A stretch of DNA of 24,133 bases from Candidatus Nanohalobium sp. (GTDB taxonomy: Archaea > Nanohalarchaeota > Nanosalinia > Nanosalinales > Nanosalinaceae): NCBI GenBank assembly GCA_042217545.1, contig JBDGSM010000007.1:1-24133 (forward strand), read 5' to 3'. The notes below the pieces were generated by a model. That model ran no database searches and had not been told where the DNA came from. It saw only the letters and a program-made list of their open reading frames with translations. A program made the position numbers and the translations under genes. Numbering within the stretch: the first letter of the stretch is position 1; every line of letters starts with the position of its first letter. This document shows positions 6,538-21,880 of this stretch, piece after piece.

Positions 6538-6747
6538 GCCTCGTTGGCTCAGCTTGGCTAGAGCGGTCCCCTCGTAGGCGTGGTTAGTGCATCTTCCTTC
6601 AGGGAAGCATGCTTTGAGCAGGTCAACTTCCTAAGGAAGTAGACTGCGATGCTCGAGCCGGACGCAACAGGTCATGCCTCCGGCATCGCTTACAGGCAAC
6701 TACGTTGAGTTAGGGACAGGTCCCGGGTTCAAATCCCGGACGGGGCT
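6538..6747 (+). tRNA. tRNA-Thr(CGT) with a 135-nt intron at 37/38 (exon 1 6538-6576, intron 6577-6711, exon 2 6712-6747)
   Basis: Acceptor stem GCCTCGT/ACGGGGC, D arm GCTC..GAGC, anticodon stem GTCCC/GGGAC around CT-CGT-A^A, T arm CCGGG-TTCAAAT-CCCGG, discriminator U. Canonical BHB: CUCG/UGAG helix with UAG and UUA bulges. Confidence 0.95.
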
Positions 6748-6815
6748 CTCACCCATTACAGTCTCTAAGCCCTTTCTGGCGAGATAGCTGATCCTTGTTA
6801 GAAAAAATTTGTTAC

Positions 6816-10366: not shown

Positions 10367-11026
10367 TCACTGGAAGAAGATCCCTTCCTCTAGGTCCGGT
10401 TCGAAGTGGGCCTGGCGTGTCTTGGTCTGGGTCGGCTCCTCACCGTGATACTTCCTTACGTACCTGACGTACTCCATCATCTTCTCTCGAGCGTACTCGC
10501 CGTCGTACTCTATCATCTCCTTACCGATATACTTCATGAAAGCCCATCTGAAGAACCTGTTCAGAGGCCTCGCCACAAGTCTTGGAAGGAAGTCGATTCC
10601 CTGAGGCATATCATACTTCATCTCAACTCTTGACCAGTACTCCACCAGGCAGAAATTATTCTCCCCTGACGGAGCGGACTTGGTCCTGATCCTTGGCTTG
10701 ATCCTGTAACTGCCCCGGCCACTCGGCAGAGGCATCTCACAGAGCATTGTCGACTCGAACTGATTGCTGTCAACGTTCTGGTAGTAGTACTTCTCGAAAG
10801 GCCTTGTCATATTCATGTTCTCCTTCATAAGGTACTTGTGCTCCTCGTAGATAGTCGGAACATTCGGCGACTCGTACCAGTCCAGGCGGTTCACTAGCTC
10901 CACCCATCCACCGTCAAAGATATGGATGTCGCTCCAGATATTGTCGTCCTCGTCTTCATCCGGTTCAGGCGTCCTGAACCAGTACGCAACTTTTTCCACA
11001 AAATCTTCGTCATCGTGGTCGCTCAC
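10367..11026 (-). CDS. Hypothetical protein, paralogue 3 of a tandem family
   Basis: 219 aa, GTG start with GAGGTGA SD; shares EKYY.VD and the C-terminal helical pattern with its neighbours. Confidence 0.8.
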   Translation of the reverse strand: MSDHDDEDFVEKVAYWFRTPEPDEDEDDNIWSDIHIFDGGWVELVNRLDWYESPNVPTIYEEHKYLMKENMNMTRPFEKYYYQNVDSNQFESTMLCEMPLPSGRGSYRIKPRIRTKSAPSGENNFCLVEYWSRVEMKYDMPQGIDFLPRLVARPLNRFFRWAFMKYIGKEMIEYDGEYAREKMMEYVRYVRKYHGEEPTQTKTRQAHFEPDLEEGIFFQ

Positions 11027-11040
11027 CTGTATTTTTCACC

Positions 11041-11658
11041 TCAGCCCCACGGAGCGTCGTAATGAGACGCTCCTGTCCTTCCAATAGACTCCTGAACTCC
11101 AAACTTTTGACGCATCAAGTTATGAATCCTCAACACAGTTTCCTCCGCTTCCTCCTCATACCTCTCAATCTCCTTCGAGTAAAACTTGTTATGCCAGATC
11201 CCTACAAGTATTCTATAAAGCTTGGAACGCTGAAAACGGGTCTTCTCCTCAGCAGTGGGCGCACCCGGCATCCTCTCCTGCTCCAGGTAAGAAGGACCAC
11301 GAGGCGTCCAGGAGGCAGGATTCCAGCCAGGATAAACCGAAATAACATCCGCCGAGACCTGTACACGGGCCTTCAAGATATCCTGAGTCCTCTCCTGCTT
11401 GTAAATATCTTTAGGCGGTTTCGCCTTGAACGAAAGATTGTAATGGATCACAGTATGAGGAGACTTCTCCTTGAAAGCATGCATACGGACACGGTCCTTG
11501 GGCTTTGAAACATTGAACTCCATCTTCCCTTCCTCAATCCTGTCCATATCGAACTCGTCCACAAGAAGGTCCTTGAGGCCTCTGTAAATCCTGGCCGGAT
11601 CCTCATCCACGAAGAAGTGGTCTGCCTTCTTGATAACATCTTCCTCGAACTTAACCAT
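11041..11658 (-). CDS. Hypothetical protein, paralogue 2 of a tandem family
   Basis: 205 aa; Y..LKDLL, YP, and Q.S.LY...FY....E.YE...EE shared with 11789-12235. Confidence 0.82.
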   Translation of the reverse strand: MVKFEEDVIKKADHFFVDEDPARIYRGLKDLLVDEFDMDRIEEGKMEFNVSKPKDRVRMHAFKEKSPHTVIHYNLSFKAKPPKDIYKQERTQDILKARVQVSADVISVYPGWNPASWTPRGPSYLEQERMPGAPTAEEKTRFQRSKLYRILVGIWHNKFYSKEIERYEEEAEETVLRIHNLMRQKFGVQESIGRTGASHYDAPWG

Positions 11659-11660
11659 GC

Positions 11661-11806
11661 TCAGGCCTCCAGTGTCTCACCAATCCCACTGCCAGACGAA
11701 GCATTCGAAGCTCGATAGAGCTTCTGCATGTCCAGAAAATCTCTTAGAGATTTTCGAGCAGTTGGACAGTTCTCGTTTTCCATGATTTTCAGGCCTCCAG
11801 TGTCTC
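11661..11806. mobile_element. 110-bp hairpin-rich insert (11679-11788) flanked by an 18-bp direct repeat; MITE-like; holds a 40-aa ORF at 11661-11783(-)
   Basis: TCAGGCCTCCAGTGTCTC at 11661-11678 and 11789-11806; perfect hairpins at 11707-11724 and 11735-11755. Mobility is inferred. Confidence 0.6.
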
Positions 11807-12235
11807 CCTCAACCTGTTGACTAACGTGTCCATTTTTTCCTCTACCGCAGGTTCATAGCCTTCGCGGACGCTGCCGTACAGGAACTTGTCATAAAGCGAT
11901 CTGTAGGCGTAGTACCAGAGGCTTTCCTGCCAGAATCTTTCATCCGGGTACTCTGTCACAAGCTTGCCATTAACCTGGATATCGACTTCTCCCGTGGCCT
12001 TGTTGATCTTGAAGAAGATCTCCAGCTCCTCCGCCGTCTCACCATCAAGCCCTTCCTCAGTCTCTATCTTCACTCTTATCATGTCGCCGTCGACGTCGTT
12101 GTAGTACTTCTCCTCGTGGACGTGGTCGAACGTCATCCTGTTCTCCAGGAGGTCCTTGATCTCGCTGTAGGCCTCCTTCGGATATTCGACCTCCACAGTA
12201 AGTCTGCGACGCTCGACTTCCTCGACGATATTCAT
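11789..12235 (-). CDS. Hypothetical protein, paralogue 1 of a tandem family
   Basis: 148 acidic aa; YSEIKDLL..EEKYYNDVD..TEYP..WQESLWY..LYDKFLY. Confidence 0.82.
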   Translation of the reverse strand: MNIVEEVERRRLTVEVEYPKEAYSEIKDLLENRMTFDHVHEEKYYNDVDGDMIRVKIETEEGLDGETAEELEIFFKINKATGEVDIQVNGKLVTEYPDERFWQESLWYYAYRSLYDKFLYGSVREGYEPAVEEKMDTLVNRLRETLEA

Positions 12236-12912: not shown

Positions 12913-15900
12913 TTACCCTGCGAACTGTCCAAGGCCTGTCTGGCGCTGATCCTTGCCGAACAGGCTCTGCAGGGTCTTGTTCAGCATCAGCACCTGCTGG
13001 CGCAGATACGGCGTAATCTCATACTCATTGATGATCTCCTTCGACGGCTGCATATACTTCTTGATAGTTCCCTCAGAAATCGTCAGCAGCACCTTGCCCC
13101 CGCACTCCGGACATTCCGCGGTCTCCTTGCCTGAAGGCGCGATCGTCTGCTGTGTCATCGGAACACGCCTGAACTTCTCGTTACAGTCAACACAACGCAT
13201 CTCCTGGCTGGAAAAGCTTCTCAGGTTACCTCTGATATCCGGAAGGAAGTGCTTCTGTAGCAGGAGCTCCGCGACCTTGTCCTCATCCACCGCTTTCAAT
13301 TTCTCACCAAGGCCTAACTGCGCAGAGGTCTTCTCACTCATCTCATCCAGCGTAACGTACTCCGACTGATTAGGCCCGTTCTCAACACTGGTCGATTCAT
13401 GAGTGAAACCATGCCTGTACGGCTCATCACTGTGAACGATGTCCTCGCCGATCTGGATCTCGTTGTCCAGGTTCCACGGCTTCTTGTACTCCTGCGTCTC
13501 CTCGTAGAAACCGAGAGGATATTCATCCACCGTTTCGATAGCCCAGGCCTCATCATCGATCTCGTCAGCGTTCAAAACAGTTGAAAGGATCAGAGGAGCG
13601 TCCATCGTGTTGTGAGCGAATACAGGATGCGGGCCGCAGAGGAAGTTCTGGTTCCCCGGCACTTCCAGATCATACACGTAGTCATCGCCGTAATCCCTCT
13701 TCTCCACCTCTTTAACACGTTCAACAGATATATCTCCCCTAACCGGCTTCTCCAGCGAGTCAAGGCCTTTACCGTAAAGTTCCTCTACTCTCTGTTTGGA
13801 GGCAGTTTTCATCCTGTCGTTCTTCCTGTCATTGGAGAAAGACTGCTTTATCTCCTTGTAGTCGGCGCCGTCGGCTCTCAGAGCTTCTCTTCCTTCATCC
13901 AGCACGTTCCATAGAGGCCAGTAAGGATCCTTGTCAGTCCATTCCGAGTAGAGGACCTCCCAGGTCTCGCCCGCCTTCCGGGTTGAAGACTTGAAGCCCA
14001 GTTTCCTGACAAGTAGAGAGAGCTGTGTGGCCATCTCTCCACTCTTGGTGTAGAGCTTGGAGAAACCTTTCTCCTCGTAGATAGAGCCGTCTCCAGCCCG
14101 GTAGGCCTGTACGAACTCCTCTACTTTCTCTTCTTCGGCGCCGAACACGAACGAAGGAATGCTTTTTTCGTCGAACTTCTCCCTTTCAAGACCTAGCTCT
14201 TCCAGCGCCCGCATCAGGACCGCAGGAGTATCGACCCAGTAGCACTTCTTTTTTCCTTCTCTGTCGTCTATATGAGTTCTCGGCTCCACACCTGTCAGCT
14301 CACGTATGCAGTGCTCGACGTCTTCTATCACATCTTCATCTGTATTTGTTATCCTTCCCCTGTCCAGGTCGCCCTCTGAAAGCAGGTAGCCCAGCAGGCG
14401 GTAAAGCTCGGCCGAGTTCTCGATGAACCGGTCTACTGGATCTGTATTAGCTCTCAGCCTTACCTTGCAGGAAGGTACGACTCCCACATCCTTGTAGAAC
14501 TCCAGAGGTGCGTCCCTTCTACCTGTCCTGTACCTGTAGATATTGTGTTCTCCGTACTCCTCTTTCACTTCCTCTCCTGCCTCGGCCTTGATCTCCGACT
14601 CCAGTTCCTCGAGCTCTTCCTCAGGAACCTTCACGTAGCATTCATCGTCCGGCAGCAACTCGAAGAGATCGATCTCATCCTCAAGGCCTTCAGCCTCCAG
14701 CTCAGGGTTCGAAGGAACCACTATACAGTCTCCTTCCTCAAGCTCCCTGACAGGCCTTGCCTCTATCTCATCTCCTTCAGTAACGAAAACACTGTGATCG
14801 CCGGTTACAGAGATCTCTCCACGGGAAGTACTGACCTCGAACACTTCCTTATCGTTCTCGTGCCTAATCAGAGCGGAGACATCCCTGAACTCGACGTCGC
14901 CCGAATCTTTATCAAACGAGACAGCCTTGATATCTTCATCAAAGCTTCTATTTACCTCAAACCCATCTTCACGCGTTTCAAAGCCTTCTTCCTCCAGCAC
15001 TTCGTCTATAAGCTCATCCGCTCTCGGAGCCTTGATCTCTCCGTTCCTCTTGACAACAAGCCTCGTATCCCTCGTAATACTCCTCGCTCCCGTCATGTCC
15101 GGGAGATACTTCCTTGAGAAGTTCAGTAATCCGTCCATCATCAAAAGGATAGCGTCCTCGTCGCCGTCAGCGTTCCTCCTCTTCGCTGCATGCCAGTAAG
15201 GATGAGCGTAGATGCCTTTGGCGTCCGTGAAACCTATTATACGGCCCACGGTTCCTCCGGACGTGTGAGGTGCCAGACCTATCACAAGGGAGCCGACAAG
15301 ATCCTGTTTCTCCTCGACATCGTAGTAAGAATCAAGGCCGTAGAACTCCTCCAGCAGCTCATCGACGTAGTTCGCAACTCTCACGAAGTAATCGGAGGCC
15401 TTCAACGTGTTCTCGCCATCAGGTATGACCAGATCCTGAGGCTTCAGCTCCAGAACCTGATCCTCGTTCTCTAGTTCTTCTCCGTTCACGTCCTGTTTGT
15501 AGCCGATCTCCCGCAGCTTCTCGACGGATACATTGATCTCTTTCGGCTTGAAATGGGTCATAGGAATGTCCGAGGCATCGTATCTTACTGTGCCGTCCTT
15601 GTTCGCGTATAGATCGTATTTCTCACGTAGAAGGCCTTTCTCGATAGGTTCCACATGCTTGTGCTTCGATGTCATCCCTCTGAAGGATTTCAGGAGTTCT
15701 GGAGGCTCTCTCATGCCAAGGTTCTCCAGGGCGTCGTCCATCATCTTCCTGACATCGATATCGGTCTCCCTGTACCTGTTCAGCCAGGTACCGCCGCAGT
15801 TACCGCATTTATCCTTTTCCTCCGTGTATTCCTTGCCGCAGTCGCTGCAGACCCAGACAGCTTCCGCAGGAGCGTCGCATTCACGGCAGAAGCTGTAATG

Positions 15901-17883
15901 CGTGATCTCACCACACTCCGTACATCTATTATGAATTATCTGCTCCCGTACAATTCCCTGCTCTCCATGCATTGTCTGCTTGTAGGAAGCGGACAGGTTT
16001 CTCATACGTCCGCCCTCCTGCTTGCCGCAGGGGAACAGAAGCTGTGGATCGCCGTTCAGGGTCCTGCGCTCGGCTTTCTCAGGCCTCCCCATACGTCCTC
16101 CAAGGTAATGCGGTGCCTGATCCCTGACCTCTATACCTGAAACATCCTCTATGAACCCCGGTATATCTGAGGCCTTCTCAACTTCCTCAAGTCTTTCAGT
16201 ATTGTCGTTTTCAAGGTCGAGAACTTTTCTCATCACCGCCATATCGTTTTCCCTGAGCTCGATCTCGCCTTCTTTCTCCCTGTGCTGTACAAGTATATCT
16301 TCCAGGGCCTTTTTCGCCTTCGAGTTCCATTCCTCGTTGCGCAGGGCCTTGTACAGGGCCTTGAACTTTGCTGGAGAGGTCTCTCTCCAGTGGTACGTCC
16401 ACTTGGGATGTAGAGGCATTCCGAGAGCTTCGGATATCTTGAAAGCTTCCTCCGGCGTCGGATCCCGTTCCTCGAAGCTTTTGCCAAGCTTTACATCCTG
16501 CTCTTTCAGCTCCTTATCCAGTTCTTTCTCCCACCATTCGCTTACGTATGGTGAGGGCAGCAGTTTCTTACCGTTCTCCACGAACTCGCCATACGTTACA
16601 AGTATATCGCCGAGGAACAGTATCTCCTCTATATCGTTCTCCAGTTCCTTTGCTTCTTCCCTCGTATCGACTTTTACCACATCTCCGTTCTTCAGACGGG
16701 CTACAGGCGGATGGATGCTGTCGCACGGGCTCCCGACCGTTGCCTTGCCCGGGTACTCCACTTTCATCTGGGTTCCGATCGCGAGGAACCGCTCTGTGAT
16801 CTCCATCGTCGCCGGGTGGAAGCTGGTCGCTGCGAGGCCGTTGGTCCTGCTGTGACCGTACCTCAGGCGGAAACCTCCTTTCCTCCCGGGATGTCCGAAG
16901 ACAGGCCTTCCAGCGGTTAGGGAACCGAGATACTTGTCGCTCGGCGTGTACTTGTCCTTCTCCTCATCGTCCTCTTCTTCATCGTCGCTTCCGGACGAGT
17001 GGAGCTCTTTCTGCAGGTCAAGATATTCTCCTATCCATTCCCAGTGCTCCAGGCCGAACTCCTCGCCCCATTTCTCGATACGTTTCTTGATCTTCGGAGC
17101 TTTCAGCGGTAGGCCGTCCAGGTAGACCAGGCAGAGGCCTCCACGGATCTGGTTCGTGTCAACGCGGTCGAGGTCCTTGTAGTTCGAGACGTCCAGGTCC
17201 TCAGTAGGGCTTCCTGTGACCTCGACAGGAACGTTCTCGGCAATCATCTCTGTCTCCTCCCTCTCCGGCGAATACTGCTTCGCCGTAACCCTGTTAATAT
17301 AGTCATCAACTTCTGTAGAATAACGTTTCACGACAGTATCTGAAGGCTTGAAACGGTCAAGGCCTACGCCGATCCTGACGTAATCGGAAAGCAGGACGGA
17401 CATGGCGCTCGCAGTACCGCCCGCGGATCTGATAGGTCCTGAGTAGTAGACCGCCAGGTACTTACTTCCATCATCGTTCTCACGTACACGGATGTCTCCA
17501 ATACCTTCCAGCGGCGCAGTCGTGATACCCCCCGTCATGTAAGAGACACCTACACGAATACCTGCGTCGCAGGCCTTCTCCACGTCGTCGAAGTCGTAGA
17601 AGTTTCCCTCCGCGATCTCCCGAGCAATAGAGAACGAAACCCTCTCGTCGTTCTTCCCGTACTCGTCCTCAAGCTCCCTGATCCTAGCGGCGACGCCCTG
17701 ATCCTCCAGCTCCGGGAACATCGCCGCGATAACCAGCGAAGAGGCCTTCTCAGGCAGATCTGTGGCTACAGGGATGTCTACCTTGTCTTCAGGATCCTTG
17801 GACTGATCTCTCGCCTTCTCAGCTACATCGTAGGCCTTTTCAGTTTCCTGTGATATTTTTCCAAAGTATTCCTCCGTTTTCAT
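12913..17883 (-). CDS. polC: DNA polymerase D large subunit DP2, intein-containing (about 1165 aa after splicing)
   Basis: APLEGI, GPIRSAGGTA, GGFRLRYG, GRMGRPEKA, GLAPHTS, HAAKRRNxDGDED, MDAPL and Zn-finger clusters. Confidence 0.97.
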   Translation of the reverse strand: MKTEEYFGKISQETEKAYDVAEKARDQSKDPEDKVDIPVATDLPEKASSLVIAAMFPELEDQGVAARIRELEDEYGKNDERVSFSIAREIAEGNFYDFDDVEKACDAGIRVGVSYMTGGITTAPLEGIGDIRVRENDDGSKYLAVYYSGPIRSAGGTASAMSVLLSDYVRIGVGLDRFKPSDTVVKRYSTEVDDYINRVTAKQYSPEREETEMIAENVPVEVTGSPTEDLDVSNYKDLDRVDTNQIRGGLCLVYLDGLPLKAPKIKKRIEKWGEEFGLEHWEWIGEYLDLQKELHSSGSDDEEEDDEEKDKYTPSDKYLGSLTAGRPVFGHPGRKGGFRLRYGHSRTNGLAATSFHPATMEITERFLAIGTQMKVEYPGKATVGSPCDSIHPPVARLKNGDVVKVDTREEAKELENDIEEILFLGDILVTYGEFVENGKKLLPSPYVSEWWEKELDKELKEQDVKLGKSFEERDPTPEEAFKISEALGMPLHPKWTYHWRETSPAKFKALYKALRNEEWNSKAKKALEDILVQHREKEGEIELRENDMAVMRKVLDLENDNTERLEEVEKASDIPGFIEDVSGIEVRDQAPHYLGGRMGRPEKAERRTLNGDPQLLFPCGKQEGGRMRNLSASYKQTMHGEQGIVREQIIHNRCTECGEITHYSFCRECDAPAEAVWVCSDCGKEYTEEKDKCGNCGGTWLNRYRETDIDVRKMMDDALENLGMREPPELLKSFRGMTSKHKHVEPIEKGLLREKYDLYANKDGTVRYDASDIPMTHFKPKEINVSVEKLREIGYKQDVNGEELENEDQVLELKPQDLVIPDGENTLKASDYFVRVANYVDELLEEFYGLDSYYDVEEKQDLVGSLVIGLAPHTSGGTVGRIIGFTDAKGIYAHPYWHAAKRRNADGDEDAILLMMDGLLNFSRKYLPDMTGARSITRDTRLVVKRNGEIKAPRADELIDEVLEEEGFETREDGFEVNRSFDEDIKAVSFDKDSGDVEFRDVSALIRHENDKEVFEVSTSRGEISVTGDHSVFVTEGDEIEARPVRELEEGDCIVVPSNPELEAEGLEDEIDLFELLPDDECYVKVPEEELEELESEIKAEAGEEVKEEYGEHNIYRYRTGRRDAPLEFYKDVGVVPSCKVRLRANTDPVDRFIENSAELYRLLGYLLSEGDLDRGRITNTDEDVIEDVEHCIRELTGVEPRTHIDDREGKKKCYWVDTPAVLMRALEELGLEREKFDEKSIPSFVFGAEEEKVEEFVQAYRAGDGSIYEEKGFSKLYTKSGEMATQLSLLVRKLGFKSSTRKAGETWEVLYSEWTDKDPYWPLWNVLDEGREALRADGADYKEIKQSFSNDRKNDRMKTASKQRVEELYGKGLDSLEKPVRGDISVERVKEVEKRDYGDDYVYDLEVPGNQNFLCGPHPVFAHNTMDAPLILSTVLNADEIDDEAWAIETVDEYPLGFYEETQEYKKPWNLDNEIQIGEDIVHSDEPYRHGFTHESTSVENGPNQSEYVTLDEMSEKTSAQLGLGEKLKAVDEDKVAELLLQKHFLPDIRGNLRSFSSQEMRCVDCNEKFRRVPMTQQTIAPSGKETAECPECGGKVLLTISEGTIKKYMQPSKEIINEYEITPYLRQQVLMLNKTLQSLFGKDQRQTGLGQFAG
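13609..15081 (-). mobile_element. Intein with LAGLIDADG homing endonuclease (491 aa, residues 935-1425 of DP2)
   Basis: N-terminus SITRDTRLVV, block B VTGDHSVF, LAGLIDADG motifs LLGYLLSEG and AYRAGDGSI, block F VYDLEVPGNQNF, C-terminus AHN with +1 Thr. Confidence 0.93.
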
Positions 17884-20671: not shown

Positions 20672-21880
20672 CTACCCGATGTAGAACTTGTCCTCTACCA
20701 TTTCTTCAAGCCTTCCACAGATATTATCCGAAAGGTCTACGCTGATCTGTCGAGTCCTGCCGTAACGTCCCTTGCTGATGACTTTGGCATTGATAACACC
20801 AAGCATGTCGAGCTCCGAGATAAGGCCTGAAACTCTTCTCTGCGTAAGTTCTGAAACATCTACTGTCTTGCAGAGGGCCTTGTACTCGCTGTAGACATCT
20901 CCTGTAGCGATCTCGTCCTCGTCCTCCGTCATATCAAGTATTGTGTAAAGGACTAGCTTCGAATGCTTCGGCTGGCTTCTTACAGTCTCGACCACTCTGT
21001 CACGCTCGATCTTGCTCTGTGCCTTGTTCACATGTTCTTTCTCTATTCTTTCTACTTCGGAACGCTCGGCCAGTTCACCTGCGACACGTAGCAGGTCGAG
21101 AGCTCTTCTTGCGTCCCCGTGCTCCTGTGCAGCTAATGCAGAACATTTCGAGATAACTCCGTCCTGGAGAGCGCCTTCGACAAAGGCCTTGTCAGTCCTG
21201 GCTCTCAGGATCTCTCTCAACTCGATAGCGTTGTAAGGAGCGAAAATTATCTCCTCCTCGGAAAGCGAGGACTTGACTCTTGAATCCATGTAATCAGTGA
21301 AGTTGAGATCGTTGCTGATACCTAAAATGGAGACCTTGGTCTCGTCCAGATCGTCGTTGATCCTGGTAAGGTTGTAAAGGAACTCGTCTCCGACCTTCTT
21401 CACGAGCGCGTCGATCTCGTCCAGCGCGATAACTACGACTCCGCCCTGGTCCTGTAAGGCCTCGAAGAACCTGTTGTAGATCTCATCTGTAGGAAGGCCT
21501 GTGCTAGGCACTTCTTCACCTAATTGACGAGCAAGTTTAGCTAGTAAACGGTATTCAGTATCTGCAACCTTCTTCATCTTGCAGTTGATGTATAGTATGT
21601 TCAGATCTATCTCCTGCTCATGTGCAACATCTTGAAGCTCATCTGTAACATGTTTTACGACCAGTGTTTTCCCTGTACCTACAGATCCGTAAAGGAAAAC
21701 ATTGCTAGGATCATTGCCTTTCAGTGATGGCGCTAGAATAGATGCCAGATCATTGATCTGTTCATCCCTGTGAAGGATGTTATCCGGTTTGTAGCTGGTG
21801 GTCAGAGCGTCCTTGTTTTTGAAAACAGAATCCTTATCGATGTAGTTAGAGAACATCGACTTCAGATTACTCTGACTCAT
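20672..21880 (-). CDS. cdc6: Orc1/Cdc6 replication initiator
   Basis: Walker A GSVGTGKT, Walker B LDEID, HGDARRALDLL, C-terminal wHTH ELDMLG..SKGRYGRTR; GGAGG SD upstream. Confidence 0.97.
   Translation of the reverse strand: MSQSNLKSMFSNYIDKDSVFKNKDALTTSYKPDNILHRDEQINDLASILAPSLKGNDPSNVFLYGSVGTGKTLVVKHVTDELQDVAHEQEIDLNILYINCKMKKVADTEYRLLAKLARQLGEEVPSTGLPTDEIYNRFFEALQDQGGVVVIALDEIDALVKKVGDEFLYNLTRINDDLDETKVSILGISNDLNFTDYMDSRVKSSLSEEEIIFAPYNAIELREILRARTDKAFVEGALQDGVISKCSALAAQEHGDARRALDLLRVAGELAERSEVERIEKEHVNKAQSKIERDRVVETVRSQPKHSKLVLYTILDMTEDEDEIATGDVYSEYKALCKTVDVSELTQRRVSGLISELDMLGVINAKVISKGRYGRTRQISVDLSDNICGRLEEMVEDKFYIG

Follow-up and report, generated by a model that had tools for sequence, protein, structure and literature searches.

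A probable palindromic repeat insertion at a coupled gene junction of a nanohaloarchaeon, and the dispersed twin-hairpin family to which it belongs

A stretch of 128 bp between two coupled genes of the archaeon Candidatus Nanohalobium sp. represents, with a probability that we put at roughly 0.7, a palindromic repeat without coding function that was inserted in this lineage only. It consists of a 110-nt insert and one copy of an 18-bp repeat, and it lies in what we call the window, the whole 24,133-nt stretch of DNA analysed here (contig JBDGSM010000007.1 of assembly GCA_042217545.1). The genome of the window, referred to as G000, measures 1.03 Mb and is 92% complete. Genomes of host-dependent archaea, about 1 Mb in size, are thought to be short of room for repeats. 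In this one, roughly 45 copies of the repeat occupy the most sensitive positions that such a genome has to offer, namely tRNA introns, coding frames and the start codons of genes for ribosomal proteins, ATP synthase and the exosome. Our verdict, reached by sequence comparison, is that the family would be an undescribed variant of the MITE-, REP- or RPE-like palindromic elements.

We refer to the upstream open reading frame (ORF) of the pair as pA and to the downstream one as pB. Both are encoded on the minus strand, pA (148 aa) at 11789..12235 and pB (205 aa) at 11041..11658. The last codons of pA, GAG ACA CTG GAG GCC TGA, make up the 18-bp repeat (GAGACACTGGAGGCCTGA), which reads from 11806 to 11789 and again, with a match of 18/18, from 11678 to 11661. 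The two copies start 128 nt apart and enclose the 110-nt insert (11679..11788, minus strand). The upstream copy (11789..11806, minus strand) is the native 3' end of pA: it encodes ETLEA and the stop codon, carries a GGAGG Shine-Dalgarno (SD) sequence inside and has homologues at the end of pA in relatives. The downstream copy (11661..11678, minus strand) is the source of the stop codon of a 40-aa ORF and of a GGAGG placed 7 nt before the ATG of pB, and it ends 2 nt short of that same ATG, so the exact recurrence described in an earlier note on this DNA is confirmed. Random pairs of flanks taken from G000 and from G001, the complete genome of a member of the same genus, shared a word of at least 14 nt in only 1 of 2000 cases; the 18-bp repeat is therefore not explained by chance.

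The twin-hairpin core of the insert spans 11700..11762 (minus strand, as do all parts of the insert named here) and is matched by the covariance model of the family, R1, with 54.3 bits (E = 4e-9) and by nhmmer with E = 7.9e-14. It contains hairpin 1 (GAAAATCTC-TAA-GAGATTTTC, 11735..11755), the conserved linker TGGACATGCA (11725..11734) and hairpin 2 (GAAGCTC-TATC-GAGCTTC, 11707..11724), the latter being a variant devoid of an SD; both helices covary in the family. Around the twin hairpin the arms CCAACTGC and GCAGTGGG (11765-11758 and 11692-11685) make up an outer stem (11685..11765), and this outer pairing encloses both hairpins in the minimum-free-energy fold, in agreement with the stems that had been proposed for these 110 bp. 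Taken alone, the 156-nt stretch folds with unexceptional energy (z = -1.45, with 20 of 200 shuffles folding as well); the hairpins are backed by covariation in the family and not by energy. The insert is composite: a twin-hairpin unit of roughly 62 nt occupies the loop of a second, surrounding hairpin, yielding a 'long form' of 110 nt. The outer arms are also present around the copy at G000:C64:2266-2329 (59 of 91 aligned positions identical), and an outer-hairpin-like sequence that has no core forms a simple hairpin in the intron of tRNA-Arg(cct). Exact words of 21-23 nt are common to the insert and copies on other contigs. A 26-mer from its right side (11688..11713) was found in only two of 50 family genomes, and its single place in G001 (G001:669044-669069), where it is identical, is not orthologous.

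The 40-aa bridge ORF (11661..11783, minus strand) opens at the ATG at 11783, 5 nt past the first stop codon, and terminates at the duplicated pA stop; the ORF translation bears out this description, including the final ...ETLEA, after which only 2 nt remain to the pB start codon. It matched no Pfam family. Its frame through the twin hairpin is the frame of the 'MTKIxDFxD...' mini-ORFs found in other copies, and it begins at an ATGG that resembles the ancestral start of pB. The G000 sequence past the first repeat copy, TGAAAATCATGG, resembles the native junction of G001, TGAAAAAATATATGG, which suggests that the original duplication continued through the ATGG of pB; the start of the bridge ORF is thus probably a copy of the pB start.

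Two further features of the insert were considered and set aside. A 22-nt piece of its right arm (11691-11712) is complementary at 21 of 22 positions to the mRNA of an orc1/cdc6-like gene of the window (20955-20976, plus strand); the G001 counterparts reach only 19 of 22, counted by eye, and the pairing is probably due to chance. The long form also has a tRNA-like look, with an acceptor-like outer stem and a TTCGAAT loop; this reading was given up since T-arm pairing is seen in a few copies only.

The insert is not an assembly artefact, because contigs of two public runs from one study cross it without a gap, with word depths of 474 and 288; these two runs may include the sample behind the window's assembly. 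The contigs of the two runs, which lose rare variants, yielded no insert-free allele. The public runs listed for the stretch are salt-lake metagenomes, consistent with a nanohaloarchaeal source, and no RNA run is among them.

The relatives offer the empty site. A search of 24 further genomes of the taxonomic family found gene pB in every one, and pA adjoins it in each of the 19 relatives whose locus was read. The insert is missing from 17 of these 19, where the pA match stops just 4-11 nt short of the start of pB; the tight junction is seen in both same-genus genomes, G001 (...ctggaggccTGAAAAAATATatggta) and G002. In two other genera the junction contains inserts unrelated to this one, 54 and 61 nt long, each with one hairpin in which an AGG or GGAGG lies immediately before the ATG, and on a low-depth contig of a relative from a separate study the 201 nt of the window are replaced by 77. 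The earlier note had stated that taking out the insert and one repeat leaves a normal coupled junction, and this is what most relatives possess; a conserved small gene, which the note had named as an alternative to an empty site, was found at the pA/pB junction in none of the relatives read. An empty site alone does not prove a gain, since precise losses occur in the family as well (at the start of Rrp42, see below). The polarity at pA/pB follows from parsimony, with one gain standing against many losses, and by this comparison of sequences the 128 bp are a lineage-specific insertion. Neither pA nor pB matched a Pfam family, and the same holds for the ORF that follows them (219 aa; the three span 10367-12235 of the window, minus strand). 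The pair is nonetheless conserved throughout the taxonomic family, and elsewhere in the order, in other families, the matches to pB are weak, several in tandem, suggestive of an array of paralogues.

The repeat family was built from a seed alignment and then extended with nhmmer and R1. Its consensus unit reads CGAAAAYC, a loop of 3-7 nt, GRTTTTC, a TGGnnnnCA linker, GAAAnnn(n), a loop and (n)nnnTTTCG. The ends of the unit are terminal inverted repeats (CGAAA at the start, TTTCG at the end), and R1 matches both strands of the same places. Searching genome-wide for the insert and its hairpins, as the earlier note had proposed, shows that the core does not stand alone: nhmmer and R1 gave 62 matches at E <= 1 in G000, which come down to about 46 places once matches to the two strands of one place are counted together and a single tRNA hit is left out, and the window's core is one of these. 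What the note had called a small insertion element is hence a member of a dispersed and polymorphic repeat family. At E <= 1e-3, R1 finds matches in 20 of the 24 genomes of the taxonomic family, with 0-22 per genome versus 35 in G000; the four genomes that have no match at all are 79-99% complete. Outside the taxonomic family, 7 of 16 genomes from other families of the order contain 1-3 matches.

To a large extent the case for the two stems lies in their covariation. When 43 R1 matches were aligned by fitting to the model (39 places from G000 and G001, four of them on both strands), 96.4% of the cells pair and 9 of the 13 pairs changed on both sides; this combination of pairing and double changes was reached by 0 of 500 shuffles, and slid controls were 25-67% paired. 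A separate run of MAFFT and RNAalifold found compensatory changes in 8 of 13 pairs. Judging from these alignments, both stems are kept by compensatory changes. They are nearly all Watson-Crick, and neither the G-U counts nor the comparison of sense with antisense folding shows any asymmetry, so a constraint on the DNA explains the stems no less well than one on the RNA. In five loci that contain copies, Rfam 15 had no match at E <= 1 and ARAGORN reported no tRNA.

The copies are old and diverged, with a mean identity of 56% and a maximum of 85%, and there is no sign of a recent burst. A near-identical donor is not found among them, the best paralogue of any G000 copy being 81% identical. In viral contigs, a degenerate 17-base pattern of the core gave 18 hits, only one of which fits the model, and weakly so (21.6 bits); these hits thus give no sign of the family on viruses. 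Full-text literature searches returned no description of this repeat family, and none is given in passages of a census of prokaryotic MITEs (PMC11602168), whose supplements might list such repeats.

Most copies of the family sit exactly on a start codon within an operon, as do about 25 of those in G000. The genes downstream, named by reading their N-terminal translations rather than by a family search, include L1, L4, S7, S27e, SUI1, Rrp42 and a subunit of ATP synthase. The order of parts is the same in these copies: the native SD, an ATG, 0-5 nt, the unit and ...TTTCGAATG, the final ATG of which is the start of the gene. The 3' arm of hairpin 2 here forms a new SD (GGAGGTG or AGGTG). From the first ATG runs a mini-ORF of 16-22 codons, which reads MxENQRFSGH... 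or MTKIxDFxD... depending on the frame, and in about 20 of the 25 G000 copies, as in 9 of 10 in G001, its stop is found between -3 and +11 nt relative to the start of the following gene; shuffled bodies are open in this frame in only 24% of cases. Copies away from start codons have no SD in hairpin 2, and the window's copy is of this subtype. Among them, copies in tRNA introns were found with R1 (Ala-tgc and Arg-gcg) or by eye (Glu-ctc and Trp-cca), and some lie beside tRNA ends, within duplicated tRNA 3' ends. Another four or five are located inside long ORFs, either in sense (C70:5369 and C18:1901) or in antisense orientation (C23:31954 and C18:2357), with C18:1901 and C18:2357 both inside a single open frame of 555 codons.

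The tRNA genes themselves deserve a short description. Many of them in G000 (on C14, C54, C62 and other contigs) contain long introns of 45-221 nt at the canonical position according to ARAGORN; the window holds one such gene, a tRNA-Thr(cgt) at 6538-6748 with an intron of 135 nt. Several of these introns have the 5' motif (A)ACTGGTTACGCTC in common, and those of Arg-tcg, Arg-gcg and Lys-ttt are present in G000 and absent from G001. Several tRNA genes are also followed by a second copy of their final 23-25 nt, beginning in the T-arm and including the discriminator base, which is either preceded by a family hairpin or has its T-loop split by a twin hairpin. Such blocks are found at G000:C14:142-220, G000:C17:20400-20490 and G000:C71:11170-11300, and near 631 kb and 854 kb in G001.

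To follow gains and losses, the flanks of each G000 copy were mapped onto G001. Of 41 places that could be mapped, 21 lie in stretches that are 46-147 nt longer in G000 and 10 in stretches equal within 7 nt, the remainder falling in rearranged regions; in the reverse direction, 4 of 12 G001 places are 55-104 nt longer than in G000. Pairwise alignments show whole units that are present in one genome and absent from the other, including a 55-nt unit in the intron of tRNA-Ala(tgc), and the copies at C70:5369 and C23:31954 are in-frame differences of 51 nt from G001 within genes. Species of a single genus therefore differ in which orthologous sites contain a copy.

Two gene starts illustrate how copies come, go and persist. 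At the start of Rrp42, where 17 of the 24 returned loci were read, the twin hairpin is found in 3 of the 17. The left SD-ATG copy of G000, GGTGACGAATAATG, matches the native initiation region of genome G014, and G001 and G002 retain the element-type GGTGATTTCTAATG (G001:732531-732543 and the G002 start; loci L149 and L150). From these sequences, GGTGATTTCTAATG in the two genomes looks like the footprint of a deletion between the SD repeats, in which the native spacer would have been replaced. At the start of SUI1, where 16 of 25 returned loci were read, 9 are empty and 2 more hold degenerate copies, and G000 and G006, which belong to different genera, carry the same variant with a frame-preserving indel. 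Some copies, such as this one at the SUI1 junction, have diverged between genera no more than the coding DNA beside them, which argues for a function and not merely for selfish persistence.

Flanking direct repeats of at least 18 nt, on the other hand, are an exception: they occur in only 3 of 60 family copies, those at pA, tRNA-Arg and tRNA-Ala. Each of the three duplicates the 3' end of the neighbouring gene, the two at tRNA genes being 23 and 24 nt long. Most copies have no flanking repeat or show imperfect microhomology at their ends, in words of 4-13 nt. The earlier note had described an insertion with a long target-site duplication. The insertion stands, whereas the duplication need not be of the kind that a transposase makes; being atypical for the family, a long target-site duplication may not be its usual mode of insertion.

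A mobilising enzyme did not emerge from the genomes searched. Y1_Tnp was absent from all 24 family genomes and from G000, 92% complete as it is, and RVT_1 (reverse transcriptase) from the five genomes in which it was sought. Ssn is described as a small GIY-YIG nuclease (PMC11893778); G000 contains no GIY-YIG match, and the relatives gave only long frames of UvrC size or weak matches. A single TnpB-like ORF is present in G000, with no family hairpins in its flanks; the match (Cas12f1-like_TNB, G000:C21:22385-22570) belongs to an open frame of 348 codons and has no strong counterpart in G001. Among the Y1_Tnp matches sought and the flanks of the TnpB-like ORF, the genomes searched likewise provided no parent insertion sequence with the same ends. 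What the insertion sites do offer is similarity to the element itself. At the C70 insertion, the element reads CCGAAAAACGAAG and the native sequence CTGAAAAACGTAG; in the duplicated T-loops, the native TTCAAATC stands beside TTCGAATC; and at start codons the native SD...AATG resembles the end of the element. That several insertions abut element-end-like sequence weakly favours copying at microhomologies by host recombination or repair over a dedicated transposase, and we would cautiously suggest that the family may spread by host repair copying guided by microhomology.

Other readings of the junction have to be weighed against insertion of a palindromic repeat. The twin hairpin could be mainly a functional RNA, a portable cassette for translational coupling or a leader in which the mini-ORF and an SD-sequestering hairpin set the ratios within operons, the pA/pB copy having been recruited; we hold this to be unlikely. 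In its favour, about 29 of 35 start-codon copies have an open mini-ORF that ends at the next start, against 24% of shuffles, the 3' arm of hairpin 2 is an SD (GGAGGTG or AGGTG) while its 5' arm resembles an anti-SD (AUCAC), copies cluster in ribosomal-protein, ATP-synthase and exosome operons, and the SUI1-junction copy is conserved in two genera with an indel that keeps the frame. However, hairpin 2 of the window's copy contains no SD, and the family extends to tRNA introns, to the flanks of tRNA ends and to coding regions, where both orientations are seen. Orthologous sites are often empty in congeners, and four family genomes (79-99% complete) have no match at all. The Watson-Crick stems and the missing advantage of sense folding are what one expects of a DNA-level palindrome, and an attenuator would depend on pairing of the 3' arm of hairpin 1 with the 5' arm of hairpin 2, which several copies do not maintain.

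A very unlikely alternative sees the 18-bp repeats as the attL and attR cores of a larger element that integrated in the 3' end of pA and has since been deleted down to 110 nt. Duplicated tRNA 3' ends are the classic footprint of integrase attachment sites, and the other two long repeats of the family (23 and 24 nt) are precisely that, reaching from the T-arm to the discriminator base. Yet the 110 nt consist wholly of family hairpin sequence with no cargo between the repeats, the pA/pB site bears no integrase remnant, and at tRNA-Arg the stretch between the tRNA and its extra copy is native flank that G001 has as well, so that the extra copy and the hairpin there were inserted as a block rather than as a flanking att pair. 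We consider it highly improbable that the insert is an archaeal intron of the bulge-helix-bulge type, spliced from the pA-pB mRNA and akin to the long tRNA introns of G000, although twin-hairpin units with an outer stem fill the introns of tRNA Ala-tgc, Glu-ctc and Trp-cca, tRNA introns were gained or lost between G000 and G001, and the AGGCCU in both repeats is self-complementary, the two copies pairing in the minimum-free-energy fold. Direct repeats do not make a helix-bulge geometry, and a 40-codon ORF that stays open over the insert is expected if the insert remains in the mRNA; a scan for bulge-helix-bulge motifs returned no candidate that removes the insert, and it likewise missed the annotated tRNA introns that served as positive controls. 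That there is no element at all, only a local tandem duplication of the junction with hairpins that arose in place or by chance, is hardly credible: the 18-bp repeat is indeed local sequence, but the core fits the family model at E = 4e-9 and exact words are found on other contigs (21-23 nt) and in G001 (26 nt).

We therefore return to insertion of a palindromic repeat, and the question becomes how such repeats could be tolerated at start codons. A copy in that position would be tolerable in that it brings its own SD in hairpin 2, a start in ...TTTCGAATG and an open mini-ORF of 16-22 codons; the mini-ORF would let ribosomes pass the hairpins and terminate at the start of the displaced gene. 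The subtype in the window brings neither SD nor start, and it should thus be viable at a coupled junction only if the junction is duplicated. Accordingly worded for pA/pB, the SD-less copy may survive only because the native junction was duplicated alongside it, a duplication that would comprise the end of pA with its GGAGG and stop codon and probably the ATGG. In this proposal pB keeps an SD at 7 nt thanks to the duplication, and the leftover first ATG opens the 40-codon ORF over the insert, by which coupling through termination and reinitiation is predicted to be preserved.

Taken one step further, and as a tentative proposal that we regard as more doubtful than probable, the family could be a self-spreading 'start-codon cassette' of nanohaloarchaea: a unit of about 60 nt that combines a mini-ORF, a hidden SD and a start, is harmless on essential starts, also enters tRNA introns and spreads by host repair with no transposase, its SD-less copy at pA/pB surviving only through duplication of the junction. 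If this were true, the tolerance would be explained by a rebuilt SD and start codon together with a short ORF kept open for coupling. The family would then also be a source of false small-gene calls and misplaced start codons in the annotation of such genomes, and it would provide a natural system in which to study archaeal termination-reinitiation and the transposase-free spread of palindromic DNA.

Several known systems share part of these features. Rickettsia palindromic elements (RPEs) are short palindromes of a host-dependent organism whose genome is small; no transposase is linked to them, and they occur between genes, within RNA genes and, in frame, within protein genes. The family resembles them in all of this, being made of short palindromes that have no linked transposase and that include intergenic, RNA-gene and in-frame protein-gene copies, but the insertion in frame into genes is a likeness of behaviour and not of membership. 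It differs in the domain of life, in its shorter unit of 51-63 nt with two hairpins, and in having most copies exactly on start codons with an SD, a start codon and a mini-ORF. With MITEs (e.g., Correia elements; census in PMC11602168) the family has in common that it is small, non-coding and multi-copy, that its ends are inverted repeats (CGAAA...TTTCG) and that its presence is polymorphic between related genomes. Unlike MITEs, it shows no target-site duplication of fixed length (flanking repeats are missing, are imperfect words of 4-13 nt or, in three copies out of 60, measure 18-24 nt), no parent insertion sequence was found for it in the genomes searched, and its copies are on average only about 56% alike.

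REP and REPIN elements are extragenic hairpin doublets that are mobilised by RAYT (Y1) transposases. The family, too, consists of hairpin doublets that insert with no true duplication, and the covariation of its stems is consistent with recognition at the DNA level; in contrast to REP and REPIN elements, it is found mostly on start codons within operons, and no Y1 transposase is present in the 24 family genomes or in G000. Finally, in leader-peptide attenuators such as that of ermC, a leader ORF of about 19 codons is translated from an SD of its own, and the SD of the gene behind it is hidden in a hairpin. A short leader ORF with its own SD and a hairpin hiding the SD of the next gene are found in the family as well, whereas the alternative pairing is not conserved, dozens of unrelated genes are involved and the window's copy has no hidden SD.

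Apart from the junction, the window shows two features of minor interest. Between 2592 and 3839 it contains three copies of a direct repeat of about 300 nt, with identities of 100%, 68% and 88% to the reference copy, within an apparently repetitive coding region. On the minus strand at 12913-17883, an ORF of 1656 aa resembles, by its translation, the large subunit of DNA polymerase D and carries an inserted segment that is possibly an intein.
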